This document shows, piece by piece, positions 1 to 56,160 of a stretch of DNA of 64,000 nt. Numbering within the stretch: the first letter of the stretch is position 1; each line of letters opens with the position of its first letter. The DNA comes from Spirochaetia bacterium. Lineage in GTDB: Bacteria > Spirochaetota > Spirochaetia > UBA9216. The notes beneath the pieces are model-generated. The model was not told the origin of the DNA. It ran no database searches and saw only the letters and a program-made list of their open reading frames with translations. The position numbers were made by a program, and so were the translations under genes. The DNA is taken from assembly GCA_963675665.1 (NCBI GenBank), contig OY776510.1:4320001-4384000 (forward strand), written 5' to 3'.

Positions 1-915
1 GATACAGGGGTTATCTTCAACATCCAGCGTTTCTCACTGCATGACGGCCCCGGAATGCGGACAGTCCTTTTTCTGAAAGGCTGTCCTCTTTCCTGCCTGT
101 GGTGTTCCAACCCCGAGTCTCAGAACCCGGATGAAGAACTGCTTTATTACAGGAACAAGTGCATCCTCTGCGGAAGTTGCGTCAAAGCCGCCGGAGGGAA
201 CGAACTGGCGGCAAGCGGAATCTCACTTTCCGAAGACGGGATTGTTTTTGACCGGGAAAAACTTGATGTAGCTGCAGCAGCTGAAACCTGTCCGACCGGA
301 GCGCTGGAGATAATTGGCCGAAAAACCAGCGCCGAAGAAATTATGCCGATGCTGATGCGCGACATTACATATTTCAGGCGCTCCGGCGGCGGAATTACGC
401 TTTCAGGAGGAGAGCCGACGATACAGACAGGGTTCTGCCGGGAGCTGCTGCTTCGGCTACGTGAACTGGGAGTGAATACAGCTGTCGAGACATGCGGGTA
501 CCGAAAGTGGGATCCTTTTCTGCGCGCGATAGAACCGGCAGATTTGATTTTATACGATCTTAAAGCAGCAGATTCTGAAGTGCACAAATCCGGCACAGGA
601 GTCGGCAACGAAATTATACTTGAAAATTTTCTGAAGCTTGTGCCTGTCAAGAATTTGACGGCCCGAATTCCGGTAATACCCGGATTTAATGCGACTGATG
701 AGAATTTCAAACAGACTGCCGCTTTTATTCTGAACAGCGGGTTCAAAGGCGAAGTCCATCTTCTACCCTATCACAGTTACGGTTCAGGAAAGTATAAAGC
801 GATGCAGCAGGAATACCAACTTGCGGGGACAGAACCTCCGACCGAAGAACAACTGAAAAAATGGGCCTATGAATTTGAATCAGGAGGTCTGACAGTTAAA
901 ATACACAAGCACTGA
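1..915 (+). CDS. Glycyl-radical enzyme activating enzyme (radical SAM), 5'-truncated by the window edge
   Basis: Frame 1 is open from base 1 (DTGVIFNIQRFSLHDGPGMRT). It has the CxxxCxxC motif GCPLSCLWC, a ferredoxin-like insert CILCGSC...CPTGA, and GGITLSGGEP. Confidence 0.93.
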   Translation, partial: DTGVIFNIQRFSLHDGPGMRTVLFLKGCPLSCLWCSNPESQNPDEELLYYRNKCILCGSCVKAAGGNELAASGISLSEDGIVFDREKLDVAAAAETCPTGALEIIGRKTSAEEIMPMLMRDITYFRRSGGGITLSGGEPTIQTGFCRELLLRLRELGVNTAVETCGYRKWDPFLRAIEPADLILYDLKAADSEVHKSGTGVGNEIILENFLKLVPVKNLTARIPVIPGFNATDENFKQTAAFILNSGFKGEVHLLPYHSYGSGKYKAMQQEYQLAGTEPPTEEQLKKWAYEFESGGLTVKIHKH

Positions 916-40081: not shown

Positions 40082-40087
40082 ATTCCA

Positions 40088-40103: not shown

Positions 40104-40192
40104 AAGATTCCTGTTTTACAATGGTTATATCTAAAATCACTGTAAATTTCAGACACAAAAGATTTCTATCAGGCCTTACAGAGGATTAAAAC

Positions 40193-41701: not shown

Positions 41702-41709
41702 GGCGGAGG

Positions 41710-42681
41710 ATGAGACTTGTGAAACTGAATAACCTTAAAAATATGACGAGATTATCTTCATCAGGAAGAAAATCTTTTATCCATAAACTTATACCCTTTA
41801 TAGGATTAGTACTTATTGTAATATTCTTTTCAATTCTTACGGAAGGAAGAACGCTAAGTTTCAGAAATTTAAAACTGATTCTCCTGCAGTCGGTAATCAT
41901 GATGATTGCAGGAATAGGACTCACCTTCACGATATCCCACGGAAGCCTGGATTTTTCACTCGGCGGGGTTATGATTTTAAGCGGCGCCCTGGGAGTACGC
42001 GCAGGTGAGATTTCCCCAGGATTTACTCTGCCCACCTGCATAATAATAGGCCTTACATGCAGTCTTATTGTCGTTGGGCTGCACCTGCTGTTAAAAGTTC
42101 CGGTATTTTTATCGGGAATATCAATGATGTTTTTAACCCAGGGTATTACCGGCACTCTGGCCGCACAAAGACCGCTGGCATGTCATTATTCACTGATGAC
42201 ATTTGACGAACCCATTGTTTATTACGGAACCTTGATTGTGATATTTTTCATTACATATATAATTTTTGAATTCACCAAGGTGGGTAAATATAACAAGGCA
42301 ATTGGTTCAAACCATATCGCTGCCGCTACAAGCGGAATAAAAGTAAATAAATACAAAGTTCTTGCGTTTGTTATATCGGGAATTCTGATCGGCATATGCG
42401 GCTTTCTGAGCCTTCTCCGTTCGGGAGGTGTTTCGTCATCCTCCTCCGGACTGGGTTTTGAGGTATTGATTTCGCTGGTTCTCGGAGGTGTATCAATTAC
42501 CGGAGGAGCCGGCACCAGACTCAGAGCGACAATAACAGGATGTTTGATTCTGACCATACTTTCAAACGGACTCGGTTTTTTAAGTGTGGAACCCGCTTAT
42601 ATAGGCAGTATAAAAGGTGTCATATTCCTTGCTGCAATAGCTTTAACATATGAAAGAAAAGCGGGTGAAATAGTTTTGTAA
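41710..42681 (+). CDS. Sugar ABC transporter permease
   Basis: RbsC-like (LDFSLG, AIGSN...SGI, VLGGVSITGG). The true start may be GTG 41719. Confidence 0.9.
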   Translation: MRLVKLNNLKNMTRLSSSGRKSFIHKLIPFIGLVLIVIFFSILTEGRTLSFRNLKLILLQSVIMMIAGIGLTFTISHGSLDFSLGGVMILSGALGVRAGEISPGFTLPTCIIIGLTCSLIVVGLHLLLKVPVFLSGISMMFLTQGITGTLAAQRPLACHYSLMTFDEPIVYYGTLIVIFFITYIIFEFTKVGKYNKAIGSNHIAAATSGIKVNKYKVLAFVISGILIGICGFLSLLRSGGVSSSSSGLGFEVLISLVLGGVSITGGAGTRLRATITGCLILTILSNGLGFLSVEPAYIGSIKGVIFLAAIALTYERKAGEIVL

Positions 42682-42733
42682 AACGTATGTTTCGTATGCG
42701 GAATATATGATTTATATACACAGGAGGAGAGAA

Positions 42734-43912
42734 ATGAAAAAAACAAAAAGGATTATCATTGCATTTGCAGCAGTCATTCTGTTGATTGGCCTGCTGGCAG
42801 GATGCATGGATAACAAGGATTCGAAAAACACAGCCGCATCATCAACCGGTGAAGCAAAGACAGTACAGTCTTCGGATCCTCCGGTCAAAAAAATTGCGGT
42901 AATCATAATGGAAACCGATGATTCCGTGATGTCGTCTGTCAAGCGTCTTCTTGATTCAGCGGCCGATGTGCTGAATGTAGAGATCACCTGGAAAACAGGC
43001 GATACCGACGGTGAAACACAGGTCAAAGCGGTAGAAAACGCTGTGGCGGCCGGTATGGACGGCATAATGATTTGGCCGCTTTCAACAGCTGTTATTCCGA
43101 AGATTCATAAAATATGCGATGACGCTGAAATCCCGATTGTGCAGTTTTTCAGGGGAATAGCTGATAAAGAATATGCAGCCCGCGCTGTAAACGAGCCTTT
43201 TTATCTTGGATATACTACCGAAGACGAAGCTCTGGCCGCGCAACTGCTTATTAAACAGCTGGCCGCAAACGGCAGCAGGAATGTATGTATTATAACAATG
43301 TTTCCCGGAGATGCCACATGTGACATCAGAAAAGCGAATTTTCTTTCAACAATGGAAGAAGAAGGCATGACCCTTCTTTCCGAATCGGTTATAACTTCAG
43401 TAGATAAAATCGATACACAAGTTATGGAAATAACAAACAATTTCCTGAGCACCTATCCTGAAATGGACGGCCTTGTGCTCTCTATCGGCAATATCGGTGT
43501 TATCGAAGCCGCCAGAAGCGTAGTCGAGAGCAGAGAAAGCGATATAAAAATAGTATCTTTCGATCATCCCGACAAAAATATCGTGGAAATGTGTGAAGGC
43601 AATTTTGTCGGTTTTGCATCAGGAGCTTACCCCGATCCGCTGTATTCGTTTATAGTAATGTATAACTTTCTGCACGGAACGCCGCTGTCGGACAAGCCCG
43701 TTGAACTTCTTACAAATTACCTTATAGTTAAAAATGCCGCTGACGCAGCAGGGTTTACCAAGTATATAAATTCTGAAACCCTTGTTTTTTCACAGGATGA
43801 AATTAAAATGATGACAAAATTCTATAACCCTGATTTCACCCTTGCTGAGTTAAAAAGGATTATAAACGATTACTCTCTCAAAGATATCGCGGCCAGAGTG
43901 AATACCAAATAG
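42734..43912 (+). CDS. Sugar ABC transporter substrate-binding lipoprotein
   Basis: Lipobox LLAGC, RbsB-like fold pattern, AGGAGG RBS. Confidence 0.88.
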   Translation: MKKTKRIIIAFAAVILLIGLLAGCMDNKDSKNTAASSTGEAKTVQSSDPPVKKIAVIIMETDDSVMSSVKRLLDSAADVLNVEITWKTGDTDGETQVKAVENAVAAGMDGIMIWPLSTAVIPKIHKICDDAEIPIVQFFRGIADKEYAARAVNEPFYLGYTTEDEALAAQLLIKQLAANGSRNVCIITMFPGDATCDIRKANFLSTMEEEGMTLLSESVITSVDKIDTQVMEITNNFLSTYPEMDGLVLSIGNIGVIEAARSVVESRESDIKIVSFDHPDKNIVEMCEGNFVGFASGAYPDPLYSFIVMYNFLHGTPLSDKPVELLTNYLIVKNAADAAGFTKYINSETLVFSQDEIKMMTKFYNPDFTLAELKRIINDYSLKDIAARVNTK

Positions 43913-43931
43913 TATAGGCATTAAAAGATAC

Positions 43932-43957
43932 ATAGGGGACGCAAATCCGTCCCCTAT
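43932..43957 (+). terminator. Intercistronic 10-bp stem-loop (mRNA stabiliser or partial terminator)
   Basis: ATAGGGGACG-N6-CGTCCCCTAT just after the SBP gene, with no U-tract on the plus strand. Confidence 0.55.
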
Positions 43958-43985
43958 AAAAATAATAACCGGCAAAGGTGATAAA

Positions 43986-44963
43986 ATGAACAAAGTACTT
44001 AGAGGCGCCAAAAAGATTCTGATTGCTATATCGATTCCGTGCATCCTTTTCATTCTGATTATGATAATTGTGCCTGAAAGAATTGGATTTCATGTACTGC
44101 CCAGTCTATTGCAGCAGGCTATCATTCCTGCAATACTTGCTCTCGGCGTCTGTTTCGAGATAAAGGTGGGCGTTTGGGATTTTTCCATAGGCGCAAACGT
44201 TATGGTGGCCGGAATAATCGGCGGAAATCTGTCCATGATGTTCGGGCTTGGTATTCCCGGGATGATTATAATATGCACGCTCACCGGGCTGATAATCGGC
44301 ACGCTTACCGGAGCGGTTTATACAGTATTAAAAGTTCCTTCGTTAATCGTATCAATTGGTATGATGCTGGTTCTTGAGAGTATAAGCGCTATCATTTTCA
44401 ACGGTCAGGGCGCCAACATGTCGAAGGAATTCCTGGCGGTGGGTGAATTCCCCATTAACCTGATTGTGGGCATAGCGGCATTTGTAATTGCCTATTATTT
44501 TTATAACGTCAGGAAATTCGGATACCAGCTTCGGGCTACGGGAAACGGGATAGCCGAGGCAAAGCTTAACGGAATAAATGTACATGTTGTCAGGCTGCTT
44601 GCATTCTCCACAGCCGGACTTCTGGCTGGCATCTATTCATTTATGACATTGGGAAGTTCAGGCGTTGTAAGAATTGTAACAAACATGGGCAGCATGGGAG
44701 TGGTTTTCGGCGCCATTATGTGCGTATTGATTGCTTTCGCTATCGAAAAATCCGTTAATCTTATTGTCGGAATCGTTATAGGCAGTATTACTGTTCAGAT
44801 AATCAAAATCGGAATACTGACCATAGGATTGCCGAGCGCTTTTCAACAGGTAATCATCGTAATACTGTTGCTGATATTCCTGGCAATTAATACAAAGGTT
44901 GATGATTTTAAAGGCATGATGAGAAGGTTTAAACGAAAACAGGAATTAAGCAGGCAGGCGTGA
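43986..44963 (+). CDS. Sugar ABC transporter permease
   Basis: WDFSIGA, KVPSLIVSIG, ATGNG...NGIN; highly hydrophobic. Confidence 0.9.
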   Translation: MNKVLRGAKKILIAISIPCILFILIMIIVPERIGFHVLPSLLQQAIIPAILALGVCFEIKVGVWDFSIGANVMVAGIIGGNLSMMFGLGIPGMIIICTLTGLIIGTLTGAVYTVLKVPSLIVSIGMMLVLESISAIIFNGQGANMSKEFLAVGEFPINLIVGIAAFVIAYYFYNVRKFGYQLRATGNGIAEAKLNGINVHVVRLLAFSTAGLLAGIYSFMTLGSSGVVRIVTNMGSMGVVFGAIMCVLIAFAIEKSVNLIVGIVIGSITVQIIKIGILTIGLPSAFQQVIIVILLLIFLAINTKVDDFKGMMRRFKRKQELSRQA

Positions 44964-45014
44964 AATCAAAATCCTGAATTTTTATTGATGCTTTAATACA
45001 TAAGGAAATAGATT

Positions 45015-46127
45015 ATGAGTTTTTTGGGAACCTCAATGAGGGATATATACCGGGAAAGAAAAGGCCGCAGAATGCGGGAATCAAGTTACGACAGATCCGG
45101 AGGCAACGCGGACTTTTATCTGATAAAACCTGTGTCCAAAGCTACTGTCTTCGATGCGGCTTCAACGGGATGCATTACGCATATCTGGGTTACAATCGGA
45201 GTGCCGGGCGGGAATCCCGTATGGGGAGCTTTTATGATGGAGCGAAAGGTTGTCATAAGAATGTTCTGGGACAATGAAACATCTCCCTCGGTTGAAGCCC
45301 CGATAGGCGACTTTTTTGGAATGGGTCACGGTATTTCCAGAAACTTTGTCTCGGCTCCGCTGACCATGTGCCCTCAGGATGGAAAAGGTTACAACTGCTA
45401 TTTCCCGATGCCATATCAAAAAGGGGCAAGAATAGAAATAGAAAATGAATCGGAAAACTCTTTAATGTTCTATTTCTATATTGATTATGAACAATATGAA
45501 GAGCCCGTCGACAGCGACCTGCGTTTTCATGCCAGATGGAAAAGAGAAATAACAAAGGGTATTGATGACAAGACAATGTCGGGAGTACAGTACCAGATGG
45601 GCGGCCGGAATCTGGATGGAGCAGCAAACTATGTAATTATGGAAGCCGAAGGTAAAGGGCATTATGTCGGATGCAATATGAATATCCACAACCTCCGTTA
45701 TACAAACCAGTTTAACTGGCCCGGAGAAGGAGACGACATGATATTCATCGACGGAGAACCCTGGCCTCCAAGACTTCATGGTACCGGAACGGAAGATTAC
45801 TTTAACACTGCTTATTGTCCCCAGCAGGAATTCAATACGCCTTACAGCGGCATAATTCTTCCGGGCGGACCGAACTGGAGCGGGAAAATTACATATTACA
45901 GGTACCACATCCAGGATCCGATAATGTTCGATAAATCAATAAAGGTGACAATTGAACATGGACATAACAATCACAGGTCAGATGACTATTCATCAACAGC
46001 CTATTGGTATCAGACCGAACCTCACATGAAATATGAACCAATAATACCGGCAGACAAAAGGTTGCCGCTTGACGATATAGTATTCGACTCTAACGAATTA
46101 GCCGATGTTTTGGGTTTGAAGGAATAA
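45015..46127 (+). CDS. Glycoside hydrolase family 172 (DUF2961)
   Basis: SSYDRSGGNAD, PSVEAPIGDFFG, WPGEGDD, GTGTEDYF, DPIMF, SSTAYWYQ. Confidence 0.9.
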   Translation: MSFLGTSMRDIYRERKGRRMRESSYDRSGGNADFYLIKPVSKATVFDAASTGCITHIWVTIGVPGGNPVWGAFMMERKVVIRMFWDNETSPSVEAPIGDFFGMGHGISRNFVSAPLTMCPQDGKGYNCYFPMPYQKGARIEIENESENSLMFYFYIDYEQYEEPVDSDLRFHARWKREITKGIDDKTMSGVQYQMGGRNLDGAANYVIMEAEGKGHYVGCNMNIHNLRYTNQFNWPGEGDDMIFIDGEPWPPRLHGTGTEDYFNTAYCPQQEFNTPYSGIILPGGPNWSGKITYYRYHIQDPIMFDKSIKVTIEHGHNNHRSDDYSSTAYWYQTEPHMKYEPIIPADKRLPLDDIVFDSNELADVLGLKE

Positions 46128-46154: not shown

Positions 46155-46535
46155 TTAATGGCCCCGCTTCCTGCGCTTCTTTTTCTGCCGGTTCAGCTGA
46201 TATCGTTCATCAGCTCTGATTCTGTGTGTTTCGGATTTCTGCTTTTTTAATAATTTCATCTGTTGTTCAAGTGCAGCCTTGTAAACAGCCTGCGATTTAT
46301 TCCCCATTCTTTTCTCTTCTTTCGGAGAATACTGCCGTTTCAGTCTGAAATCATGAGAACCTTTCAGGAACCGCAGGTTATCATAATCCGTTAAATAAAA
46401 CCGGAGCAATTCGGCATTTCCCGGTTCGGGTCCGAATACATATCTTGCCGTCATTATTGAATCTGAGGAAATTTTTTCTACAAGCGCAATCCAGAACTGT
46501 CCGTCATACATGACAGTTGTTTTTACCGTTTCCAT
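46155..46535 (-). CDS. yjdF: YjdF family protein (DUF2992)
   Basis: TVMYDGQFWIALVE, YVFGPEP, KSQAVYK, and basic C-terminus KKKRRKRGH. Confidence 0.9.
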   Translation of the reverse strand: METVKTTVMYDGQFWIALVEKISSDSIMTARYVFGPEPGNAELLRFYLTDYDNLRFLKGSHDFRLKRQYSPKEEKRMGNKSQAVYKAALEQQMKLLKKQKSETHRIRADERYQLNRQKKKRRKRGH

Positions 46536-46561
46536 ATAAGCCTCCGAACGTAACTATACGG

Positions 46562-46670
46562 AGGCAAAAACGGACATCTGGCGTGATGGATACTGAATCT
46601 ATAAGTCCGGGTTTTTCCCGAAACCTTCGATCGCCCGGACTACCTGCGGGGCCGTGTTTTTTCTTTGCCT
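46562..46670 (-). ncRNA. yjdF (azaaromatic) riboswitch, variant form
   Basis: In the 5' UTR of yjdF: closing stem AGGCAAA/TTTGCCT and conserved blocks AAAAACAC, GGTAGTCCGG, TCAGTA and GATGTCC in the expected order. An anti-SD hairpin follows. Confidence 0.82.
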
Positions 46671-46692
46671 GAAATTAGAGTTATATAAAATA

Positions 46693-46716
46693 TGAATAAA
46701 AACCGGTTTTTATTCA
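46693..46716. repeat. Perfect 24-bp palindrome TGAATAAAAACCGGTTTTTATTCA (terminator, REP-like or operator)
   Basis: 15 bp downstream of the AOR stop and upstream of the riboswitch. Confidence 0.6.
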
Positions 46717-46731: not shown

Positions 46732-48567
46732 CTACGCAACGACTTCTTCAAGCCCAAGTTCTTTAATCTTGTCCGCAGAAACAAGTCCGTTTTCATTCCA
46801 GCCGCGGAATCTGTAGTAATCCTCAAGCATCGTACCGAAAGGCGGCAGCTCATTGGTTCCGCCGCCGCGGCGGTGAGTCAGTATTCTTTCAGGCAGGGTA
46901 TCATCCTTGCGCGAAAGTCCGATCCGCTGGTTGTAAAGGCGTTTCAGATTGAAAATACGTTCGCCTGTTTTAAGAAATTCTTCAACGGTCATACTCCACC
47001 CGGTAGAGGCATTCATATAATCAAGTGTGTGCTGAACCATCAGGCCGCCGTAACGGGCGAATTTGCATATGCAGAGGGAATCAAACAGGCACGACCAGTC
47101 CTGCATGCGCGCAACTATTGCCGCTTTCTTTGGTGAAAATCGGCCTTCCGACGCTTCTACACCCAGGTTTTCTACGTACGCTTCTTCATAATCCTGGGTA
47201 AAAGACAGATGACATGCTCCCCGGTTTGAAGTGGCGTATGCAAGCGCAAGAGAGAAATTCGCCCTCGGATCATGAGCCGGTAATTCAAGGCCTTTAACCT
47301 GCTGTGTGAAGGCTTCAGCTTCAGGACCTATCTTTTGTGAAAAACTGCGTGCGCCGTCGGCCATCATCTCACCGAGTTTTCCCTCGCGCCTGCACATCTT
47401 CTCAAGCGCCTGCAGAGCCGCCGCGCCGTTTCCGAAACAAAGTTCAATTCCATCCGTGTCGTCAAGCGTAAGAAGTCCCTTTTCAAACGATTCCATCGCA
47501 ACGGCAAGCGTGTTGCCTGCAGATATGGTATCTATACCGTAACGGTTGCATATTTCATTCTCTTTCAGAATAACATCATAATCATCTATAAGAAGGTTCG
47601 AACCCATAAGCCCCACGGTTTCGTATTCAGGCGCGGCAATCTGTTCGCCGTCGTAGGGCCCGCCCTTTGCCGTTCCCGTCTTTCCGCATGCTATCGGGCA
47701 TTTTCCACAGGCATAATTTCCGAGATTATGGGTTTTGATTGTCGTATAACCTTTAATCCTCTCTGCGCCTTCCGGCCAGTTTCCCTGATACCAGTTTTTT
47801 ATAGGCAGGTTTCCTACCTCTTCAAAGAAATCCAGGGCACATGTAGTTCCGGCTTCATGCATACCGGCAGCGTCCTCTTTCATTGATTTGTTAAGCGACT
47901 TGTTTATCTGCTTGACCCGGTCAGCATCCGCTATTTCGGGAACGGTATTCCCGGCTACAACAACAGCCTTCAGGTTTTTCGAACCCATTACCGCTCCGAG
48001 CCCGCAGCGTCCGGCCGCCCTGCCGTGTGCGCCGTCGGCGATTATTGCGGCCACCTTTATCAGGTTCTCCCCGGAGGGCCCGATACATGCAACCTCGCAG
48101 CCCTTTCCTTCGGCGACCTTCAGTTCGCGCTGGGTCATGAATGTATCTTTGCCCCAGTAAGTTCCGGCCGGTTTGATTGAGACTTCTTCGTCGCTGACTT
48201 TCAGGTAAACGGGGGCATCAGCCTTTCCGCGCACAATGATTGCATCATAACCGGTTTTCTTGAACCGGCTTCCCCATTTCCCGCCGCAGGAAGCCTCGCC
48301 GTAAATTCCGGATTGGGGCGATTTACCGACAATTTCAAAACGATCCGAATTAAACCCTGCAGTGGCCGATACTGGTCCGGTTGCCCAGATCATCACATTG
48401 TCCGGCCCCAGCGGATCGGTATCCGGACCGGTAAGATCATAAAGCATTTTAGCCCCGAATCCGCTGCCGCCTATCCAGGTCCTGGCAAATTCTTCAGTAA
48501 TATCAACTGTATCTACAGTTCCTTTCGTCAGGTCAATATCCAGATACTTTCCATGATAACCCTTCAT
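46732..48567 (-). CDS. aor: Aldehyde:ferredoxin oxidoreductase (tungstopterin AOR family)
   Basis: GRCGLGAVMGSKNLKAV, CGKCPIAC, PEYET, DTIS, HDPR, RGACH, DSLCICKF. Confidence 0.93.
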   Translation of the reverse strand: MKGYHGKYLDIDLTKGTVDTVDITEEFARTWIGGSGFGAKMLYDLTGPDTDPLGPDNVMIWATGPVSATAGFNSDRFEIVGKSPQSGIYGEASCGGKWGSRFKKTGYDAIIVRGKADAPVYLKVSDEEVSIKPAGTYWGKDTFMTQRELKVAEGKGCEVACIGPSGENLIKVAAIIADGAHGRAAGRCGLGAVMGSKNLKAVVVAGNTVPEIADADRVKQINKSLNKSMKEDAAGMHEAGTTCALDFFEEVGNLPIKNWYQGNWPEGAERIKGYTTIKTHNLGNYACGKCPIACGKTGTAKGGPYDGEQIAAPEYETVGLMGSNLLIDDYDVILKENEICNRYGIDTISAGNTLAVAMESFEKGLLTLDDTDGIELCFGNGAAALQALEKMCRREGKLGEMMADGARSFSQKIGPEAEAFTQQVKGLELPAHDPRANFSLALAYATSNRGACHLSFTQDYEEAYVENLGVEASEGRFSPKKAAIVARMQDWSCLFDSLCICKFARYGGLMVQHTLDYMNASTGWSMTVEEFLKTGERIFNLKRLYNQRIGLSRKDDTLPERILTHRRGGGTNELPPFGTMLEDYYRFRGWNENGLVSADKIKELGLEEVVA

Positions 48568-48580
48568 ATCTTTCTATCCC

Positions 48581-49510
48581 CTATTTTAAGTTTGCAGCCA
48601 GTTCGGCAATAGCTTCGGCGGTGAAACCGAACCGCTCCTTAAGATACGGAAGCGCTCCGACCTCTCCGAATTCTTCCTTTATACCGTGCGTTACAACTTT
48701 TACCGGATAATTAGCCGCAAGAAATGTTGCTACTGCCGACCCCATCCCTGTTGCCGCCTGGTGATTTTCGCAGGTCAGAATCGCTCCCGTTTTTTTCGCA
48801 TATTCAAGGACAAGATCTTCATCAATCGGTTTAACTGTGTGCATGTCGATTACAGCAGCATTAATTCCCTTTTCAGCGAGAAGCCCGGCCGCCTTCAGGG
48901 CCTCCGGAACAAGTATAAAACCCGTTGCTATAATGGTCAGATCGGTTCCGTCGCGCAGGACCTTGCCCTTTCCGAGTTCAAATGTCTCGCCGTCGTTGTA
49001 AATCCGGTTTGAATCCTTTCGGTGCAGACGAAGATATGTACAATTAGGCGATGCGGCAGCCTGCATGACAAGCGCCTTAAGCGAAATAATGTCAGAAGGT
49101 TCATAGATGATCAGATTCGGCGTATTTCTCATAATACCGAAATCTTCAAAGGTCATATGGGTTCCGCCGTTATACTGGCAGCTTATTCCGGGGTCGGTTC
49201 CGGTCAGGTTAACATTCAATCCGGAATAATTGGATGATATAAAGAACTGATCATAAATACGTCTTGACGCAAAACAGGCAAAGGTATTTGCAAAAGGAAT
49301 CTTCCCCATTGAGGAAAGCCCGGAAGCAATTCCTATCATATTGGCCTCGGCCACTCCTGTATTAATTGACTGTTCAGGAAATTCCCTGAAAAAGGCAGTC
49401 AGGCCGTCTGCTCCCATGAGATCCGCATCAAGGGCAACAATATCCCGGTTTTCTCTCGCAAGCTCCATCAGTGTTTCACAGTATACATCACGCATATCCT
49501 TGTCAGGCAT
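48581..49510 (-). CDS. Split transketolase, C-terminal subunit
   Basis: GVAEANMIG, GGTHMTFED, YLRL, DMHTVKPID, ENH. Confidence 0.92.
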   Translation of the reverse strand: MPDKDMRDVYCETLMELARENRDIVALDADLMGADGLTAFFREFPEQSINTGVAEANMIGIASGLSSMGKIPFANTFACFASRRIYDQFFISSNYSGLNVNLTGTDPGISCQYNGGTHMTFEDFGIMRNTPNLIIYEPSDIISLKALVMQAAASPNCTYLRLHRKDSNRIYNDGETFELGKGKVLRDGTDLTIIATGFILVPEALKAAGLLAEKGINAAVIDMHTVKPIDEDLVLEYAKKTGAILTCENHQAATGMGSAVATFLAANYPVKVVTHGIKEEFGEVGALPYLKERFGFTAEAIAELAANLK

Positions 49511-50345
49511 AAGTCTTCTCCTTTTCCGTTAAAGCTGCAATAGCGGAGTCCCTGTCATCAGGGCTGAATGCCATGTTGTGACTCGCAAGTTTTTCTTCTG
49601 CAAAGGCAGCGCCCTTGCCCTTGATTGTATCCAGAATAATCATCGAAGGTCGTCCGGCAGCTTTTTGGGCCCGTCCGACTGCATCAACTATCAAATCTGT
49701 TCTGTGACCGTCCACTCTCTGAACATGCCAGTTGAATGCGGACCATTTTGCGCCCAGATCATCAAGATTCATTATATCTCTTGTATACCCGTCGATATTC
49801 ATCTTGTTGTAATCGGTAAATGCTATCAGGTTATCAAGACCGTAGTGGGATGCGGCCATAGCTGCTTCCCATATCTGGCCTTCATCACTTTCACCGTCTC
49901 CGATAATTGCGTAAACGTAATTATTGAATTTATTCATTCTGCAACCCAGGGCTATCCCGATAGCTGCGGAAAGCCCCTGGCCCAGGGAACCGGTGCTCAT
50001 GTCTATTCCCGGCGTCCGTTTTCTGTCGCAATGACTGGGCAGATTGGTCCCGCCCTGGTTTAATGTTGCAAGCCATTCAACCGGGAAAAAACCCTTATCG
50101 GCCAGAACAGCGTAAAGAGCAGGACCGGCATGTCCCTTTGAAAGTACAAGCCTGTCGCGATCTTCCTTTCCCGGGTTTTCCGGATCCACATTCATGCATT
50201 CATAGTACAATGCAGTAAGCACCTCAACTATCGACAATGAACCGCCTATATGGCCGATGCCGATATCTCCGATGGCCTTGATAATCATCTTCCTTATCTT
50301 CAGGGCTTTCAGTTCCATTTCCCCTGATCCTTTTTTCAGACTCAT
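49503..50345 (-). CDS. Split transketolase, N-terminal (ThDP-binding) subunit
   Basis: GHIGGSLS, RDRLVLSKGH, STGSLGQG, GDGESDEGQIWEA, TIKGKG. Confidence 0.93.
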   Translation of the reverse strand: MSLKKGSGEMELKALKIRKMIIKAIGDIGIGHIGGSLSIVEVLTALYYECMNVDPENPGKEDRDRLVLSKGHAGPALYAVLADKGFFPVEWLATLNQGGTNLPSHCDRKRTPGIDMSTGSLGQGLSAAIGIALGCRMNKFNNYVYAIIGDGESDEGQIWEAAMAASHYGLDNLIAFTDYNKMNIDGYTRDIMNLDDLGAKWSAFNWHVQRVDGHRTDLIVDAVGRAQKAAGRPSMIILDTIKGKGAAFAEEKLASHNMAFSPDDRDSAIAALTEKEKTYA

Positions 50346-50501
50346 AAAATTCTCCTCAACCGGATAAATTCCCGGAGTATTTTTAACAAGCTGCCGAAAT
50401 GTTAAGTAACGTGATTCCGTTATGCATAACTCATCCGGAAGTTTATTAAAGACCTCCTGAAATATCTGTCCGAAAAATATAATTCATGATATATTTTAAA
50501 T

Positions 50502-50630
50502 GGAGCCCGTTCCCGGGTCTAATCCGGTTTGCCGGGCTCCGTACAACATCGGCTGTTTCCCCGCCGCCTTTCGGCGACGTTCCGTATGGAGTAACTCCAT
50601 CAGGAGTGTTTGGGGAAACAGCTTTTTTTT
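50502..50630. other. Compound intercistronic RNA structure (hairpin plus branched stem)
   Basis: GGAGCCCG/CGGGCTCC stem; GCTGTTTCCCC/GGGGAAACAGC stem enclosing two hairpins; T8 run on the plus strand. Confidence 0.55.
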
Positions 50631-51582
50631 AAAAAGCTGGTTTCTGTCCGGCTACATTGTCTTTTGTTATCTTTCTTGATGCCGGAATAACCTCAGGATC
50701 AACCTTTTCGCCGTTGAGAATCTTCATTGCAAGTTCAAATCCCTGGGTTCCGCATGGTTCATATGTCCAGGTTGCGGACATTTCACCGGCTGCAATCGCG
50801 TCAAGTTCTTCCTGCTGACCGTCAAGACCAATTATAATTACTTCATCAAGTCTGCCTGCATCTTTTACAGCCTGAACGGCACCGAGGGCCATTTCGCCGT
50901 TTGCAGCAAAAATAACATCAAGAGTTCCTGCAGGATTTGCCTGAAGGACATTCTGCATTACAGAAACAGCCTGTGGTCTTCTGTAATCAGCCGGCTGCTG
51001 TGCAACAACCTTTATGCCGCTCTGTTTGTCAATTACTTCATGAAAACCGCCTACTCTGTTAACAGAGGTTTCATCACCGGGAATACCTTCAATTACTACA
51101 ACATTTCCCTTTACAGAACCGTATTTTCCTTTCAGATGATCTACAACATAGTCTCCAATTTCAGTACCGATAAGGTAATTGTCCATTGAGACCATTGTAA
51201 TCGCATCGGTGCCGTGGATAGGTTTTCCTACAAACATGAAGGGAATACCCTTTTCATGAACTTTATTCAGTTCCTGCTTCAGGCCCTCTGCCTTTGCTGC
51301 CTGAACAAGAAGAATATCGATGCCCTTTGTGAGCATATCTTCAATACCTGCAACCTGCTTTACAACAGAGCCCTGTCCGTCGGTGGCAATAACCTTTACA
51401 TTCGGATAAGCTTCAGCTGCATCGAGAATCTGATCTCTCTGGGTTATCATGAACGGATGGTCCAGACTTTCCTGTGAAAGTCCGATTACGATCATGTCAT
51501 CTCCGCCTTCCTGCTGTCCTCCAGCAAAAGCCATTCCCGTAATACTGATTAACAACAGCATTACTACCAGAATTTTCTTCAT
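50629..51582 (-). CDS. Sugar/polyol ABC transporter substrate-binding protein (RbsB-like)
   Basis: MAFAGGQQE signal, DHPF, IEGIPG, ANGEMALGA, IGLDG; AAGGAGG RBS. Confidence 0.92.
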   Translation of the reverse strand: MKKILVVMLLLISITGMAFAGGQQEGGDDMIVIGLSQESLDHPFMITQRDQILDAAEAYPNVKVIATDGQGSVVKQVAGIEDMLTKGIDILLVQAAKAEGLKQELNKVHEKGIPFMFVGKPIHGTDAITMVSMDNYLIGTEIGDYVVDHLKGKYGSVKGNVVVIEGIPGDETSVNRVGGFHEVIDKQSGIKVVAQQPADYRRPQAVSVMQNVLQANPAGTLDVIFAANGEMALGAVQAVKDAGRLDEVIIIGLDGQQEELDAIAAGEMSATWTYEPCGTQGFELAMKILNGEKVDPEVIPASRKITKDNVAGQKPAF

Positions 51583-51756
51583 CCAATTCCTCCTTGAAAA
51601 GAAAAACAAAAGCCGACAGCTTAAGTTCTCCTCTTTGAAGTTTTATATCAGCTACGCTGACAAAACTTCTTTAAAATCTATGGTGATCAATTAAAGAATA
51701 CGAGATCCTTTAATTGCCAATGCACAATTGCTCCTATCAGCCTGAATAAATACAGT

Positions 51757-52713
51757 TTATTTCTTTCTGTTGGACTGCATGCTCTGAGCCAGAACAGCAA
51801 TGATGATGATTGCCCCCTTTACAATTTTCTGGGTGTATCCCGGGACATTGATCAGGTTAAGAAAGTTATTAAGAATTCCTATTATTATTACGCCTATTAC
51901 GGTACCGACAACTCCGCCCCGTCCCCCGGCAAGAGAGGTCCCTCCGACAGCTACCGACGCAATTGCATCAAGTTCCATTCCGGATCCGAGATTGGCCTCG
52001 CCGACATTAAGATGATTAGCCATGATAATGCCTGCAAAGCCTGAAAGACCGGAACTGATTACATAGGCCGCCATCTTTACCCTGTCTACCCTGATTCCGG
52101 AAAGCCGGCTGCCTTCCTCGTTTCCGCCTACAGCGTAAATATAGCGGCCGAGTCTTGTCCGGTTTAATACTATGCTTGCTGCAACTGCCGTAATTGCAAA
52201 CAGAATCGTCTGAACGGGGATGGTATCAAACAGTTTGCCCTGGCCAATGAAAGAAAGTCCTTCCGGCGTACCGATAATCGGGTGGCCGTGAGAATAAGTC
52301 AGCCCTATTCCGACAACAGCGGTCATCATACCGAGCGTTGCGATAAATGCCTGGAGTTTCCCTTTTGTAACAAGTATTCCCGTTACCAGGCCGAAAATCA
52401 TGCTCAACGCCATAGCCAGAAGAAAAGCGGGAAGAGCGCCGTAGTCCTTGAACCCGGCGACAATCAGGGTTGAAAAAGCCAGTACCGAACCAACCGAAAG
52501 GTCTATTCCGCCCGTAATAATAACAAAAGTCATGCCGATGCTGATTATGCCTATTTCCGAAACCTGTCTTGTTATATTTAAAAGGTTTTCAGCTTTTAAA
52601 AAATACGGCGATACAATTGCACAAACTATAAATAAAATCACCAGAACAGCAAGCATTCCGTAGTTTTCCACGAAATGAACCCTGTTAAATTTCCCTGTTT
52701 TAATATCCGACAT
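51757..52713 (-). CDS. Sugar ABC transporter permease (RbsC-like)
   Basis: GGIDLSVGS, FIATLG, AVGGNEEGSRLSGI, ELDAIA. Confidence 0.93.
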   Translation of the reverse strand: MSDIKTGKFNRVHFVENYGMLAVLVILFIVCAIVSPYFLKAENLLNITRQVSEIGIISIGMTFVIITGGIDLSVGSVLAFSTLIVAGFKDYGALPAFLLAMALSMIFGLVTGILVTKGKLQAFIATLGMMTAVVGIGLTYSHGHPIIGTPEGLSFIGQGKLFDTIPVQTILFAITAVAASIVLNRTRLGRYIYAVGGNEEGSRLSGIRVDRVKMAAYVISSGLSGFAGIIMANHLNVGEANLGSGMELDAIASVAVGGTSLAGGRGGVVGTVIGVIIIGILNNFLNLINVPGYTQKIVKGAIIIIAVLAQSMQSNRKK

Positions 52714-54212
52714 TACGCCACCTCCCCTGTTGCACACTTCATAATTTTCTCCTCCGTAGCTTCGTCCGCCGTAAACTCTCCCGTAATACGGCCTGAGTGC
52801 ATTACCAGAATACGATCGCTTACCCCTATAATTTCCGGAAGCTCCGAAGAAATCATAATTATTACCTTGCCCTGATCGGCCAGTTTTCTCATCAGATTGT
52901 AAATTTCAGCCTTCGCCCCTACATCTATTCCCCTTGTAGGTTCATCCAGAATGATAACATTGCAGTCTTTGGCCAGCCATTTGGCAAGAACCACTTTCTG
53001 CTGATTTCCGCCTGATAATCCGCTGACCGGCAGATCGATGCCTGCGGAAGCAATTTTCAGAATTTTGATATACCTGTCGGCTATTTCTTTTTCCTTTTTG
53101 GGCTGAATCAGTCCGCCTTTTAAAATCGTATCAAGCACAGCCAGAGAAATATTCTTTTTTACAGACATACCCAGGATAAGCCCCTGCTGTTTACGATCTT
53201 CAGTTGCAAAACCGATACTCTTCTGAATGGCCTTCAGCGGTTCGGTAATCCTGACTTCCTTACCGTAAAGGGAAATCCGGCCGCTGTCAAAGCGGTCCGC
53301 ACCGAATACCGCGCGGGCAAGCTCAGTACGCCCGGCGCCTACCAGTCCCGAAATTCCGAGAATCTCTCCTGCATACGCCTCGAACGAAACATCTTTCAGA
53401 ACACCTTCACGCTTGATATTTCTTACGTCAAGAACCTTCGCTCCCCGTTTTGCGCTTGCGCGGGAGGGATAATACTCACCGAGGGTTCTGCCGACCATCA
53501 TTTTTATCATCCGGTCCTTATCAAGGCTGGCTACATCTTCCGTTCCAACGGTTTTTCCGTCCTTAAGAATTGTAACCCTGTCGCACACCTCAAAAATTTC
53601 TTCAAGTCTGTGCGAAATATATATTATTGTTTTTCCGTTTGCCCTGAGCTTTCGGATTGTTCCAAAAAGAAAATCTATTTCATGATCGGTAAGCGTTGCT
53701 GTCGGTTCATCCATAACAATCAGCTCGGCATTCATGGACAGGGCCTTTGCTATCTCCACCATCTGCTGCTGTGCGACACTCAGGTTTTTCACTTTTTGAC
53801 TGACATCTATATTGAGGCCCAATCCGTTCAGAAGTTTCCGGGCTTCATTCTTCATCGTTTTATAATCAATAAATTTACCGCTTACAAGCGGTTCACGACC
53901 AAGAAAAATATTCTCAACAACACTCATATAAGGAATTAGATTGAACTCCTGATAAATTATTCCGATACCGGCCTTCTGGGCGGCTATCGGATCCGGATGA
54001 TTGAATAATTGTCCCTTAAACCATATTTCACCGGAATTCGGCTGATGCGCTGCACTGAGAACTTTCATTAGTGTTGATTTTCCGGCCCCGTTTTCACCGA
54101 GCAATGCATGAACTTCACCCTGGAAACAGGAAAAAGTTACATTATCCAGAGCTTTTACACCCGGAAACGATTTTTCTATATTTTTCATCTGCAATATGAT
54201 TTGATCACTCAT
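52713..54212 (-). CDS. Sugar ABC transporter ATP-binding protein (RbsA-like)
   Basis: GENGAGKST, MDEPT, LSGGNQQK, DEPTRGIDVGAK. Confidence 0.95.
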   Translation of the reverse strand: MSDQIILQMKNIEKSFPGVKALDNVTFSCFQGEVHALLGENGAGKSTLMKVLSAAHQPNSGEIWFKGQLFNHPDPIAAQKAGIGIIYQEFNLIPYMSVVENIFLGREPLVSGKFIDYKTMKNEARKLLNGLGLNIDVSQKVKNLSVAQQQMVEIAKALSMNAELIVMDEPTATLTDHEIDFLFGTIRKLRANGKTIIYISHRLEEIFEVCDRVTILKDGKTVGTEDVASLDKDRMIKMMVGRTLGEYYPSRASAKRGAKVLDVRNIKREGVLKDVSFEAYAGEILGISGLVGAGRTELARAVFGADRFDSGRISLYGKEVRITEPLKAIQKSIGFATEDRKQQGLILGMSVKKNISLAVLDTILKGGLIQPKKEKEIADRYIKILKIASAGIDLPVSGLSGGNQQKVVLAKWLAKDCNVIILDEPTRGIDVGAKAEIYNLMRKLADQGKVIIMISSELPEIIGVSDRILVMHSGRITGEFTADEATEEKIMKCATGEVA

Positions 54213-54239
54213 TTGTAGTTTCTCTCCGGTTAACTATAC

Positions 54240-54255
54240 TGCAATAAACATGCCA
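54240..54255 (-). promoter_or_regulatory. sigma54 (-24/-12) promoter TGGCAT-GTTTA-TTGCA
   Basis: Matches TGGCAY-N5-TTGCW with exact spacing, 27 nt before the ATPase start codon. Confidence 0.8.
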
Positions 54256-54486
54256 GTTTAATTTATCAAAAGGATCACTGATTTAGACACACTCTAATTT
54301 CTTACACATTAACTATTTAGCATGTTTAATGAATAAACTGCAGTACTAAATCTATTAACCTTTGTTTACTCTCGTTTATTTTTTCTACACATCCCGCTGC
54401 AGATTGTGTAAAATTTAACCACAGAGATTTTTTCTGAAAATATTCCAGGACAACAGTAGACAAATTTCCGCTTTTTCTATTAATAT

Positions 54487-55374
54487 ATGACTGTCATGGA
54501 TGTTAGAACATATTTGGCGCGGATAGGAATCAATGAAATTCCCGAGGCAACTCTGGAAAATCTTAAACTGCTGCAAAGCAGACATCTTCTGACTGTACCG
54601 TTTGAAAACCTTAATATACATATGTATAATAAACTCTCTTCGGATCCCGACGAGCTTTTCGAAAAGATCGTTCTTCAGCGCCGCGGCGGCGTCTGCTACG
54701 AATTAAATTATCTGTATATGCTCCTGCTTGACGAACTGGGATACAGGACATCATTTTACGGCGGACGGGCCGGCGAGAACGGCACTTTTTTCGATCACAG
54801 TTTTCCGATAGTGGAAATAGACGGAATTCGCTATATAACCGATGTCGGATTCGGAGACAACTTTCTCTATCCCCTTGAGTTTAAACCCGATGTCCCCCAG
54901 CTGGATCCGAAAGGCATCTTTACAATAGAATATGAAGGCGGCGGATACTACACGGTATACAAGGAACTTGAAGACAAACGCTTTACCGAGTACACCTTCA
55001 CCCTTAATAAAAGAAAACTAAGTGATTTTAACGATAGAAAAATCTTCTATACGACAAATCCCGAATCTCATTTTTTCAGAAACCTAATAGTCTCAATTGA
55101 ACTCGAAAACGGCCGCATTTCCCTGAAACAATCCAAGATTCTTTTTACCGAAGGAAACGAACGGCGCTGGATCAAGGTTGAGTCGTTTTATCATTATGTC
55201 TATTTACTGTTCGAATATTTCGGAATAGTACTTACTCCGCAGGAGCGCAGAAAACTGAAAAACTCAAAATTCTGGAATAAACGCTATAACAGGAAAAAAA
55301 CCCGCGCGCTATTAATGGCAAGTTCAATTCAGCAGAATTTTTACAACCGTTTCGGGACCTTCCTGGGCGGATAA
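54487..55374 (+). CDS. Arylamine N-acetyltransferase family protein
   Basis: VPFENL, RRGGVCYELN (Cys), DH (His), TDVGFG (Asp). Confidence 0.92.
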   Translation: MTVMDVRTYLARIGINEIPEATLENLKLLQSRHLLTVPFENLNIHMYNKLSSDPDELFEKIVLQRRGGVCYELNYLYMLLLDELGYRTSFYGGRAGENGTFFDHSFPIVEIDGIRYITDVGFGDNFLYPLEFKPDVPQLDPKGIFTIEYEGGGYYTVYKELEDKRFTEYTFTLNKRKLSDFNDRKIFYTTNPESHFFRNLIVSIELENGRISLKQSKILFTEGNERRWIKVESFYHYVYLLFEYFGIVLTPQERRKLKNSKFWNKRYNRKKTRALLMASSIQQNFYNRFGTFLGG

Positions 55375-55398
55375 AAAATCTGAACACTCCAGGCTGTT

Positions 55399-56160
55399 TT
55401 AACCATTTACCCAGTCAACAACCTTTTCAGTCACAGGATCGCATTCCGGTCCTTCAAAAAAAACATGCGGGCTGTTTTTCAGTATCAATTTTTCCGCCAG
55501 GTAATCTTTTACGCCGGCTTCTATTATCTCTCCCGCCGACAGGGGGACCGTACTGTCCTTTTCCGACAGCATGATATATACAGGACAATTGATATCTTTC
55601 AGCTTTCGCCGGGCCATTCTCATTATCTTTATAAATCCCGCAAGCTGCGCCGTATAATGCCTGCTCCAGTACTCACGTTCCATGAAAATCCTGTCTTCAT
55701 CTATAACCTCTGCCCGGGGACGGTCGCGCTTTATGTATGGAATAAGAAATCTCAATACCGGTGTAAAATATACCAGTTTCTGTTTTACAGCTATTGCCGG
55801 GGCAAGGAGGATGATCTTTTCCGGTTGAAACTCGGCCGCCGCCAGAATCGCAAGCAGGCTTCCCATTGATAACCCTACTATTGTTACAGATTCGAACCTG
55901 CTCTGAAGATTCAGATACTCATTCCTAAGATGGTCCAGCCATAATTTCCAGTTGCTATTTTGAAAATCCTTACGGTTTGTCGCATGCCCGGGCAGACGCG
56001 GAACTGCAACAGTATATCCTTCCGCATGCAACCTGCGGGCCACTTTATAGACTTCAGCCGGATAACCGTTATAACCGTGCTGTACCAGTACGGCCCTGCC
56101 GTTTGTACCTTCAAGGTATAACGGAAGAGCCGACTTTAAAACTTTAATATTGCTTTTCAT
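55399..56160 (-). CDS. Alpha/beta hydrolase (carboxylesterase)
   Basis: HGY, LPGH, GLSMG nucleophile elbow, D..V and SPH. Confidence 0.9.
   Translation of the reverse strand: MKSNIKVLKSALPLYLEGTNGRAVLVQHGYNGYPAEVYKVARRLHAEGYTVAVPRLPGHATNRKDFQNSNWKLWLDHLRNEYLNLQSRFESVTIVGLSMGSLLAILAAAEFQPEKIILLAPAIAVKQKLVYFTPVLRFLIPYIKRDRPRAEVIDEDRIFMEREYWSRHYTAQLAGFIKIMRMARRKLKDINCPVYIMLSEKDSTVPLSAGEIIEAGVKDYLAEKLILKNSPHVFFEGPECDPVTEKVVDWVNG

Follow-up and report, generated by a model that had tools for sequence, protein, structure and literature searches.

What use would a bacterium have for a transketolase (TK) and an aldehyde:ferredoxin oxidoreductase (AOR) that are encoded side by side behind a sugar importer? 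The question is raised by a predicted six-gene operon in the window analysed here, a stretch of 64,000 nucleotides (contig OY776510.1, positions 4,320,001 to 4,384,000) from the closed 5.15-Mb genome (G000) of a free-living spirochaete. Probably the locus stands for a route, so far undescribed, by which an unphosphorylated sugar is split and the leftover aldehyde oxidised. The operon is read as a sigma-54-controlled accessory catabolic module for a sugar or polyol that remains unphosphorylated before its cleavage, a reading whose probability is put at roughly 0.55.

The operon, its promoter and its importer

Six minus-strand genes, named by their Pfam matches, lie head to tail between positions 54212 and 46732. 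In the direction of transcription, the predicted operon and its control elements are the following.

54381..54413, minus strand: conserved upstream element TTTTACACA-N14-16-TGT(A/G)(A/G)AAAAA, then AAAC; about 130-190 nt upstream of the -24/-12 promoter; candidate site for an activator (or architectural protein)
54240..54255, minus strand: sigma-54 (-24/-12) promoter TGGCATGTTTATTGCA; exact consensus match, 28 nt upstream of the ATPase ATG
52713..54212, minus strand: CUT2-type ABC ATPase, 499 aa, two fused nucleotide-binding domains (Pfam ABC_tran, two stretches)
51757..52737, minus strand: CUT2 permease (BPD_transp_2), 326 aa; translation probably begins at the ATG at 52713
50629..51609, minus strand: periplasmic sugar-binding protein (Peripla_BP_4), ribose-binding-protein-like with a changed pocket; closest solved relative 2IOY
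50346..50628, minus strand: structured spacer with two conserved stem-loops, 283 nt; minimum free energy -100.7 kcal/mol, z -7.24 against shuffles
about 50622-50552, minus strand: spacer hairpin 1, GCUGUUUCCCC...GGGGAAACAGC
50540-50502, minus strand: spacer hairpin 2, GGAGCCCG...CGGGCUCC, then AUUUAAAAUAU
49503..50345, minus strand: tktN, N-terminal TK subunit, binding thiamine diphosphate (ThDP), 280 aa (PF00456 Transketolase_N)
48581..49510, minus strand: tktC, C-terminal (Pyr + C) TK subunit, 309 aa (PF02779 Transket_pyr and PF02780 Transketolase_C)
46732..48567, minus strand: aor, single-subunit AOR of the AOR/WOR family, 611 aa (PF02730 AFOR_N and PF01314 AFOR_C)
46694..46715, minus strand: terminator-like A+T-rich hairpin, then a T-rich run; probable operon end, read from the sequence

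The sequence-only reading had described the six-gene order, the -24/-12 promoter, the tktN/tktC overlap and a short gap before aor, and all of these are right as described. The two TK genes overlap by 8 nt (ATGCCTGA), and the aor ATG lies 13 nt past the tktC stop. For the binding protein, a better ribosome-binding site and ATG about 27 nt inside the open reading frame (ORF) mark the probable start. The operon is taken to end at aor because the A+T-rich hairpin, which was not called by a terminator consensus scan, is followed by an azaaromatic (yjdF) riboswitch and the DUF2992 gene that belongs to it. This riboswitch (46554-46673, minus strand; 46.5 bits, gathering score 45) lies just downstream of aor and directly upstream of the DUF2992 gene (46155-46535, minus strand). 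The stretch from the promoter to the terminator-like hairpin is free of genes for a kinase, an isomerase or a dehydrogenase. The earlier claim that such genes are lacking stands inside the operon but not beyond it, where a co-inherited sigma-54 operon carries two Zn-dependent dehydrogenases. A specific NCBIfam equivalog was found for none of the six operon proteins.

The promoter shows the GG-N10-GC core (TGGCAC-N5-TTGCW), and RpoN is intact in the genome. TGGCATGTTTATTGCA is the sole zero-mismatch match to TGGCAYN5TTGCW within the window; the 5.15-Mb genome holds 17 such matches, where fewer than two would be expected by our own rough chance estimate. The promoter keeps its position in all three orthologous loci looked at (L015, L016, L019). 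Among the 29 Sigma54_activat matches in the genome, 26 are found at E <= 5.5e-55. The TTTTACACA element recurs 110-230 nt upstream of two sigma-54 promoters, namely that of the six-gene operon (4/4 genomes) and that of a DJ-1/PfpI gene (3/3 genomes). Because this conserved element is common to both promoters, the operon and the DJ-1/PfpI gene are very likely co-regulated. The weight of the element comes from its cross-species conservation and not from the genomic site count: the strict pattern matches only these two genomic sites, compared with 0-2 (mean 0.3) in ten Markov simulations.

The spacer between the binding-protein gene and tktN is strongly structured. Both stems are kept in four of the four genomes, with two pairs changed on both sides. 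No Rfam family matched the spacer, either at the gathering threshold across the window or at E <= 1 on 50300-50700, and a TPP (thiamine pyrophosphate) or Moco (molybdenum cofactor) riboswitch was dropped for this reason. A genome-wide repeat was also rejected, as the element is unique in the genome. In two relatives of the same genus (G004 and G005) tktN starts only about 40-50 nt past hairpin 2, a gap that would favour read-through over a separate tktN promoter. The role of the spacer may be that of a regulatory RNA, or of a partial terminator or stabiliser by which binding protein and enzymes are made in a set ratio.

The importer has the CUT2 architecture of RbsABC, with a fused double ATPase, one BPD_transp_2 permease and a Peripla_BP_4 binding protein. 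In contrast to that system, no rbsK or rbsD is present here and the NCBIfam equivalogs score far below cut-off. The ATPase stays below the cut-off of every one (AraG, RbsA, XylG, AlsA), and the binding protein reaches 144.7 bits with RbsB, for which the cut-off is 337. Its closest solved relatives are ribose-binding proteins, with the Thermoanaerobacter protein 2IOY at 172 bits. In the list of ten residues that we take to be the ribose contacts of the E. coli protein, five are changed (N13H, F16M, D89G, R90K and Q235Y). Given the low score and the changed contacts, an identity as RbsB was rejected.

The transketolase and its oxidoreductase partner

The TK subunits were aligned with human TK and with the solved split TK of Carboxydothermus. 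In tktN the equivalents of human His37, His77, His110, Lys244 and His258 are kept: H32, the His of the SKGH motif, H105 and H256 align with the four histidines, and the GDG...N motif for ThDP and Mg is present as GDGESDEG...N. Besides the domains expected of a split TK (PF00456 in tktN, PF02779 and PF02780 in tktC), tktC contains the cofactor-activating glutamate (Glu366) as E55. The canonical pentose-phosphate pocket of human TK consists of Arg318, Ser345, His416, Asp424 and Arg474, residues that presumably serve phosphate binding and stereoselection. In tktC, both arginines are kept (R7 for R318 and R164 for R474), and the equivalent of Gln428 is H118, a kept or conservative position. The remaining pocket residues have been substituted: A34 replaces Ser345, D106 replaces His416 and N114 replaces Asp424, so that the canonical set is not found. 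In the excerpt of PMC8016368, Ser345, His416 and Asp424 are active-site residues around the xylulose-5-phosphate adduct of human TK.

The genome holds 10 split TK pairs. The canonical H...ED...H pattern occurs in one of the ten (THGG...GEDG...SHQ), and the pattern G[ST]DPG...NGGTHM is common to four, the window TK and the loci at 2.00, 4.82 and 4.86 Mb. Two more pairs (G000 1057244-1059635 and 1704340-1706449) show NGAYGG...GKAGATH, a third kind of pocket, and a gene of the LacAB/RpiB family adjoins each. The comparison supports a dedicated, non-housekeeping enzyme, with intact catalytic residues and an altered substrate-tail pocket.

It had been set beforehand that clustering with housekeeping enzymes would speak against such a dedicated role. 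The window TK does not cluster in this way, and belongs to a clade that also holds SqwGH-type clusters. Relatives were collected from the phylum, where 20 of 401 genomes contain a TK match at E <= 1e-90, and from metagenomes, where at least 589 stretches matched and 581 were confirmed as relatives, of which the best 80 were kept. The DPG...NGGTHM pocket is found in all 33 spirochaete-genome rows (some loci are listed twice) and in 78 of the 80 kept metagenome relatives, the exceptions being L088 with EPG and L059 with FPG. For the neighbours, ORFs within 4.5 kb of the TK were clustered and one representative of each of the 31 largest clusters was compared with Pfam. The commonest families were the RpiB/LacAB family (14 loci), iron-dependent alcohol dehydrogenases (11), ROK (11), TauE (10), DUF4867 (6) and GH31 (4). 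An acylating aldehyde dehydrogenase, an ADP-forming CoA ligase and a Na/sulfate-type symporter lie beside the TK in 4-5 metagenome loci, and some alcohol or aldehyde oxidoreductase is found within 4.5 kb in 28 of the 66 metagenome loci that have at least one neighbour ORF.

As given in the excerpts of two articles (PMC9594981, PMC12890257), the gene set of the sulfoquinovose sulfo-TK pathway includes SqvB (DUF4867), SqwI (PF02502) and SqwF (PF00465), along with an SqwD/SqwKL sulfoacetate variant; SqvD is FucI-like (PMC9594981). Where the context is recognisable, the neighbour families of the clade match this published set and its sulfoacetate variant. Counting RpiB-family SqwI, SqwF-type iron-dependent alcohol dehydrogenase, TauE, DUF4867 SqvB, GH31 and the acylating dehydrogenase/CoA-ligase variant as markers, two or more are present in 15 of the 66 loci. 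A hand-labelled set of 23 sulfo-TK-like metagenome loci is broader than this stricter count, as it includes loci with an RpiB-family neighbour alone. In a tree of 109 tktC sequences (FastTree, LG+gamma; the duplicates L005, L006, L014, L024, L044, L046, L047 and L102 were excluded, as were high-scoring segment pairs shorter than 280 aa or with stops), the window TK is nested among sequences from sulfo-TK contexts, and the canonical paralog of its own genome falls outside. To TKs within recognisable sulfo-TK clusters it is 57-62% identical in tktC and up to 71% in tktN. The window TK shares the clade of these enzymes, and is not encoded together with SqvB/SqvD, SqwI, SqwF/SqwE or SqwD/SqwKL.

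Within the clade, the TKs of the window, of three congeners (G001, G004, G005), of a paralogous locus B in the same genome and of metagenome locus L048 are monophyletic. These window-type TKs carry the signature DADLxGA[DN]G[LIVM]. At tktC position 33 all AOR-linked window-type TKs have Gly, compared with Arg or Lys in 20 and Asn in 3 of the 23 hand-labelled sulfo-TK-like loci. Among the best 120 clusters from a collection of 5.8 billion proteins, 15 contain the window-type signature and 87 a basic residue; the 15 are all but two of the clusters at 65% identity or above. On these alignments, the window-type subclade is small but real. Further TK contexts were seen elsewhere. In another subclade (L077, L078, L084, L086, L092, L098, L105 and others) a GAPDH-like gene and phosphoglycerate kinase flank the TK, sometimes with IolD/IolE/IolG-like genes or LarA. 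A further group lies between Pro-tRNA synthetase and LarB/LarC, and alcohol dehydrogenases are the other recurring context.

The aor product contains both domains (AFOR_N and AFOR_C), the CxxCxxxC...C ligands of the [4Fe-4S] cluster and the equivalents of Glu313 and His448. Its best solved relative is the AOR of Pyrococcus furiosus (1AOR), matched over the full length at 405 bits. As judged from these residues, it is an enzyme of the broad-specificity P. furiosus AOR type with all cofactor ligands, and tungsten-type by family. No partner-subunit genes adjoin aor, as in single-subunit Class I WORs. The GAPOR and FOR readings were rejected: FOR scored 304 bits against 405 for AOR, and no GAPOR structure was among the matches compared. 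Candidate molybdate/tungstate binding proteins are encoded in the genome and do not discriminate W from Mo. The archaeal AOR is linked to aldehydes derived from amino acids and comes from P. furiosus, whereas the host here is a mesophilic spirochaete and aor lies within a sugar-type operon with TK.

A conserved linkage of tkt and aor had been expected from the sequence-only reading. This was borne out within the genus and in a few further places, whereas outside the genus the pairing is rare. The same six-gene order is found in three other species-level genomes (G001, G004, G005) at 75-91% protein identity. Locus B of the same genome contains a divergent GntR gene, AOR (79% identical), tktN (73%), tktC (66%) and a short-chain dehydrogenase/reductase (SDR). 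A scan of the genome contigs for AOR gave 9 loci. The own AORs closest to the window enzyme (100, 79 and 59% identity, the next being 36%) lie 0, 0 and 13.7 kb from three of the four clade TKs. The region of the third (59%, 13.7 kb from the TK) contains two ABC importers, three alcohol dehydrogenases and a sigma-54 activator. The fourth clade TK (L004, G000 4808001-4826000) has the order ABC importer, glycyl radical enzyme (GRE, 783 aa), activase, tktN, tktC, SDR and GntR, a further TK context that is so far undescribed.

Outside the genus, metagenome locus L048, the closest match (70%), reads AOR-tktN-tktC-SDR, with GntR, a GRE and an activase convergent to it. A 2.8-kb contig from another spirochaete family (G213) also reads AOR-tktN-tktC. 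As the TK of G213 sits in the other main subclade, the TK-AOR pairing must have arisen at least twice. In a tree of 32 AOR sequences, from which duplicates and segment pairs shorter than 560 aa had been left out, the AORs of the window-type TKs are monophyletic; TK subclade and AOR subclade match each other.

AOR relatives without a TK were also found. They occur in groups of iron-dependent alcohol dehydrogenase, AOR and SDR beside sugar ABC importers in 5 of 7 loci, and beside 2-oxoacid:ferredoxin oxidoreductase genes in 1 of 7. Such groups beside sugar importers were seen in other spirochaetes and an Atribacteria-labelled metagenome-assembled genome (L008-L011, L017, L018), in places together with DUF4867, a gluconolactonase-like protein, URO-D-like proteins or tagaturonate epimerase. 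The wider AOR clade seems to serve sugar or polyol clusters in anaerobes, the TK link being one version of this.

A co-inherited glycyl-radical operon and other neighbours

A second sigma-54 operon, the partner operon, starts just left of the window and reaches into it with its last gene.

55..915, plus strand: glycyl-radical-enzyme activase (Radical_SAM/Fer4_12), last gene of the partner operon

From a divergent sigma-54 promoter left of the window, this operon encodes two Zn-dependent alcohol dehydrogenases, a GRE of 803 aa and the activase. Also left of the window are an NtrC-type sigma-54 activator and a histidine kinase whose N-terminal domain is an ABC ATPase of the CUT2 type. The DJ-1/PfpI gene introduced above, which encodes two domains and has its own sigma-54 promoter, lies on the other side of the partner-operon region. 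The GRE passes the cut-off of the PFL2-3/glycerol-dehydratase subfamily and contains a Cys-x-Glu motif, which we take to be an eliminase motif. In NCBIfam no specific equivalog was found for the GRE, the Zn-dependent dehydrogenases or the SDRs; sulfopropanediol dehydratase and hydroxyproline dehydratase remain far below their cut-offs.

In G001 and G004 the GRE operon adjoins the importer-TK-AOR operon in convergent orientation, and in the window genome the two are about 46 kb apart. Orthologues of the partner operon are well conserved in these relatives (GRE 85-87%, Zn-dependent dehydrogenases 74-79%, activator 78% identity), and the activase at 55..915 is 71% identical to that beside the operon in G001. 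G000, G001, G004 and G005 carry the GRE orthologue together with the TK-AOR operon, and in G002 (81% complete) and G003 (100% complete) both were looked for and not found; these six genomes are related and do not count as independent trials. Because the six-gene operon is co-inherited with the dehydrogenase-dehydrogenase-GRE operon, the missing dehydrogenases are probably supplied in trans. From these co-inherited dehydrogenases and the SDR of the paralogous AOR-TK locus it follows that the imported compound need not be a ketose. The conserved upstream element of the GRE-operon promoter differs from that of the six-gene operon, and for this reason the activator beside the GRE operon is no longer assigned to the TK-AOR operon.

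The roughly 46 kb between the two modules (window 933-46535) are partly low in G+C (0.355-0.43, compared with 0.45-0.49 in the operon) and rich in signalling proteins, and look like an insertion or rearrangement. Part of this DNA is a separate sugar locus on the plus strand (38894-46127), with a LacI regulator, a second CUT2-like ABC system (ATPase, two permeases and a binding protein) and a DUF2961 protein, a family that we take to be glycoside hydrolase family 172. On the other side of the operon (54487-56160) lie a divergent gene of the arylamine N-acetyltransferase family and an alpha/beta hydrolase; both are found beside the operon in G001, and the hydrolase alone in G004.

Two histidine kinases have an N-terminal half that resembles a CUT2-type ABC ATPase, with matches to YtfR, LsrA, AlsA and MglA (L128:10120-11949, which is G000 4312120-4313949, and L002:15923-17740). 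The gene of an NtrC-type sigma-54 activator adjoins each of them, and CUT2 importers with TK genes are close by. Docking on a permease may allow these kinases to sense transport. The genome as a whole is expanded in the families concerned, with 16 AOR-family genes, 10 split TK pairs, more than 40 CUT2 binding proteins and 26 strong sigma-54 activator matches.

Proposed pathway, rival readings and meaning

In the proposed pathway, the CUT2 importer would take up a compound that either is a 2-ketose or would be made one by a dehydrogenase acting in trans or by the SDR of the paralogous locus. From this ketose the SqwGH-like split TK would then move the C1-C2 ketol unit onto an acceptor, for which SqwGH suggests glyceraldehyde 3-phosphate (GAP), and xylulose 5-phosphate would form with no ATP spent. 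AOR would turn the aldehyde left behind into the acid and pass the electrons to ferredoxin; the aldehyde would reach it either unchanged or once it had been reduced to a 1,2-diol and dehydrated by radical chemistry. Short hydroxy- and oxo-aldehydes are reactive and glycating, and the co-regulated DJ-1/PfpI protein would guard against them. Donors that would fit the scheme, as examples only, are erythritol or erythrulose, which would leave glycolaldehyde, and pentitols or xylulose, which would leave glyceraldehyde.

A more detailed version of this scheme can be put forward tentatively, at somewhat less than even odds. In the genus and a few uncultured relatives, breakdown would be independent of ATP and yield reduced ferredoxin: the SqwGH-like TK would load C2 on GAP, and AOR, GRE, the two Zn-dependent dehydrogenases and DJ-1 would handle the hydroxy-aldehyde, all under sigma-54 control.

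Several observations weigh against reading the operon as a module for an unphosphorylated compound. Both phosphate-binding arginines are kept in tktC, which makes a phosphorylated donor possible. Of the at least 581 metagenome relatives, the best 80 include only one with an AOR beside the TK, and AOR adjoins 1 of 20 TK places in other spirochaete genomes, where 1.5 kb on either side of the TK were covered and some places lie at contig ends. Conservation in one genus and one paralogous duplication is weak as independent evidence. AORs 46-62% identical to the window enzyme occur without TK, so that the AOR clade is not tied to transketolases. In the phylum, 400 other genomes gave no binding-protein orthologue at E <= 1e-70, with the top five candidates per genome scored. 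The conserved spacer ends in a hairpin and a short U-run and could terminate transcription before tktN. Finally, beyond the operon's own copy the strict upstream-element pattern has a single further match in the genome, where about 0.3 would be expected.

Simple aliphatic aldehydes are the classical AOR substrates, and such aldehydes would be delivered to the enzyme in the alternative that survives best. Here, the TK product (glycolaldehyde, glyceraldehyde or lactaldehyde) would be reduced to a 1,2-diol by a Zn-dependent dehydrogenase, the GRE would convert the diol to acetaldehyde, 3-hydroxypropanal or propanal, and only this aldehyde would reach AOR. Redox balance is kept in this scheme, and no part of the island is left without a role. 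It draws on the adjacency of the dehydrogenase-GRE-activase and TK-AOR operons in G001 and G004, on their common presence and absence in the genus, and on the sigma-54 promoter of the GRE operon next to an activator/kinase pair. The Cys-x-Glu motif and the subfamily cut-off passed by the GRE also fit, as do the GRE and activase beside AOR-TK-SDR in L048 and beside TK-SDR in locus D of the same genome. Against it, locus B has AOR, TK and SDR without a GRE, the two modules lie 46 kb apart in the window genome, their promoters have different upstream elements, and the best GRE equivalogs score far too low. An obligatory passage through the GRE is considered unlikely, if clearly the strongest of the rivals.

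The closest known system is the sulfo-TK pathway, and a variant of sulfoglycolysis has to be weighed: a sulfonated ketose would be imported and cleaved, and AOR would oxidise sulfoacetaldehyde or 4-deoxy-4-sulfoerythrose to a sulfonated acid. The two systems have much in common. The split TKs belong to one clade, with the DPG...NGGTHM pocket, both anion-binding arginines and the high identities given above (57-62% for tktC and up to 71% for tktN, nested among TKs of sulfo-TK clusters). In both, an unphosphorylated ketose is cleaved and C2 transferred to GAP (here as a proposal), and an aldehyde-processing enzyme is encoded beside the TK. Both are found in anaerobes including spirochaetes, and according to the excerpt of PMC12890257 the sulfo-TK pathway is reported in Spirochaetes and its published variants differ in sulfoacetaldehyde disposal (SqwF or SqwD/SqwKL).

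The operon here, however, has no SqvB, SqvD, SqwI, sulfoquinovosidase or TauE exporter, and none is convincing elsewhere in the genome. No DUF4867/SqvB scores above cut-off there, and tblastn with the GH31, SqvB and TauE proteins of metagenome clusters gave no genome match, with a putative SqvD giving only 25-29% matches. The importer is of the CUT2 type, whereas that of the sulfo-TK pathway is CUT1 and the sulfo-TK loci seen here carry SBP_bac_1 systems. Position 33 is Gly in window-type TKs, as opposed to Arg/Lys (20/23) or Asn (3/23) in the hand-labelled loci. The aldehyde partner is a ferredoxin-linked, tungsten-type AOR; in the searched parts of two sulfoquinovose reviews such a partner goes unmentioned, and the terms ferredoxin and tungsten do not occur in those of the 2026 one (PMC12890257). 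A sulfosugar substrate is rated low on two grounds, the absence of the accessory genes from the genome and the lack of the basic residue in the pocket.

A similarly low rating is given to the view that the genes are neighbours without a common pathway, with a ribose-like importer, an extra pentose-phosphate TK and an AOR that acts as a general aldehyde detoxifier or acid reducer. The conserved spacer hairpins could split two transcripts, AOR relatives occur without TK, and in a genome with 16 AORs, 10 split TK paralogs and more than 40 CUT2 binding proteins chance adjacency comes more easily. Yet the TK-AOR pairing recurs in another gene order, in another family and on a metagenome contig, and the TK and AOR trees match. 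Moreover, the TK pocket is non-canonical while a canonical TK is encoded elsewhere, half of the ribose contacts in the binding protein are changed, and the 40-50 nt behind hairpin 2 in G004 and G005 leave little room for a separate promoter.

Sugar acids usually enter cells by transporter families other than CUT2, which counts against a reverse pathway, where AOR would reduce an acid to the aldehyde with reduced ferredoxin and the TK would use this aldehyde as acceptor to build a ketose. TK reactions are reversible and AORs can reduce unactivated acids at low potential (excerpt of PMC9295118), but the CUT2 systems matched are sugar or polyol importers, the catabolic contexts across the TK clade point to cleavage and no downstream kinase or isomerase would use the ketose, which makes this direction highly improbable.

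Two further systems resemble the proposed catabolic module in part. AptAB, the apulose-4-phosphate TK of D-apiose catabolism, is also a split TK dedicated to catabolism and served by a binding-protein-dependent importer. Its pathway differs in having a kinase and a phosphorylated donor, whereas no kinase is encoded here; no NCBIfam model named AptAB was matched by the operon proteins. In the archaeal non-phosphorylative branch of the Entner-Doudoroff pathway, too, C-C cleavage frees an unphosphorylated aldehyde, glyceraldehyde, and a molybdo- or tungstopterin oxidoreductase converts it to the acid, as AOR is proposed to do here. The archaeal cleavage is catalyzed by an aldolase instead of a TK, in other organisms and by other enzyme lineages.

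The sequence-only reading knew of no described TK-plus-AOR route, and none was found in the literature searched (full text; TK with AOR and gene cluster, and TK-dependent catabolism). To our knowledge, TK cleavage of unphosphorylated sugars has so far been established only for sulfoquinovose. The evidence partly supports the locus as a variant of this principle of TK-dependent, non-phosphorylative cleavage, with a narrow taxonomic range. It suggests that such cleavage is used for compounds beyond sulfoquinovose, and that a third type of aldehyde sink, linked to ferredoxin and yielding H2, exists beside the published reductive and CoA-dependent ones.

For the WOR family, a physiological role is defined in 5 of 92 clades, according to the excerpt of a 2026 classification paper (PMC13328260), in whose main text transketolase, sugar and ABC transporter are not mentioned. 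A WOR clade that is fixed beside a catabolic TK and a sugar importer offers a concrete, testable role, with parts that are few and soluble and a host that seems to be an isolate. If the proposed pathway is true, the sulfo-TK principle would be extended to neutral sugars, and one WOR clade would gain a defined role in the central carbohydrate catabolism of mesophilic bacteria.

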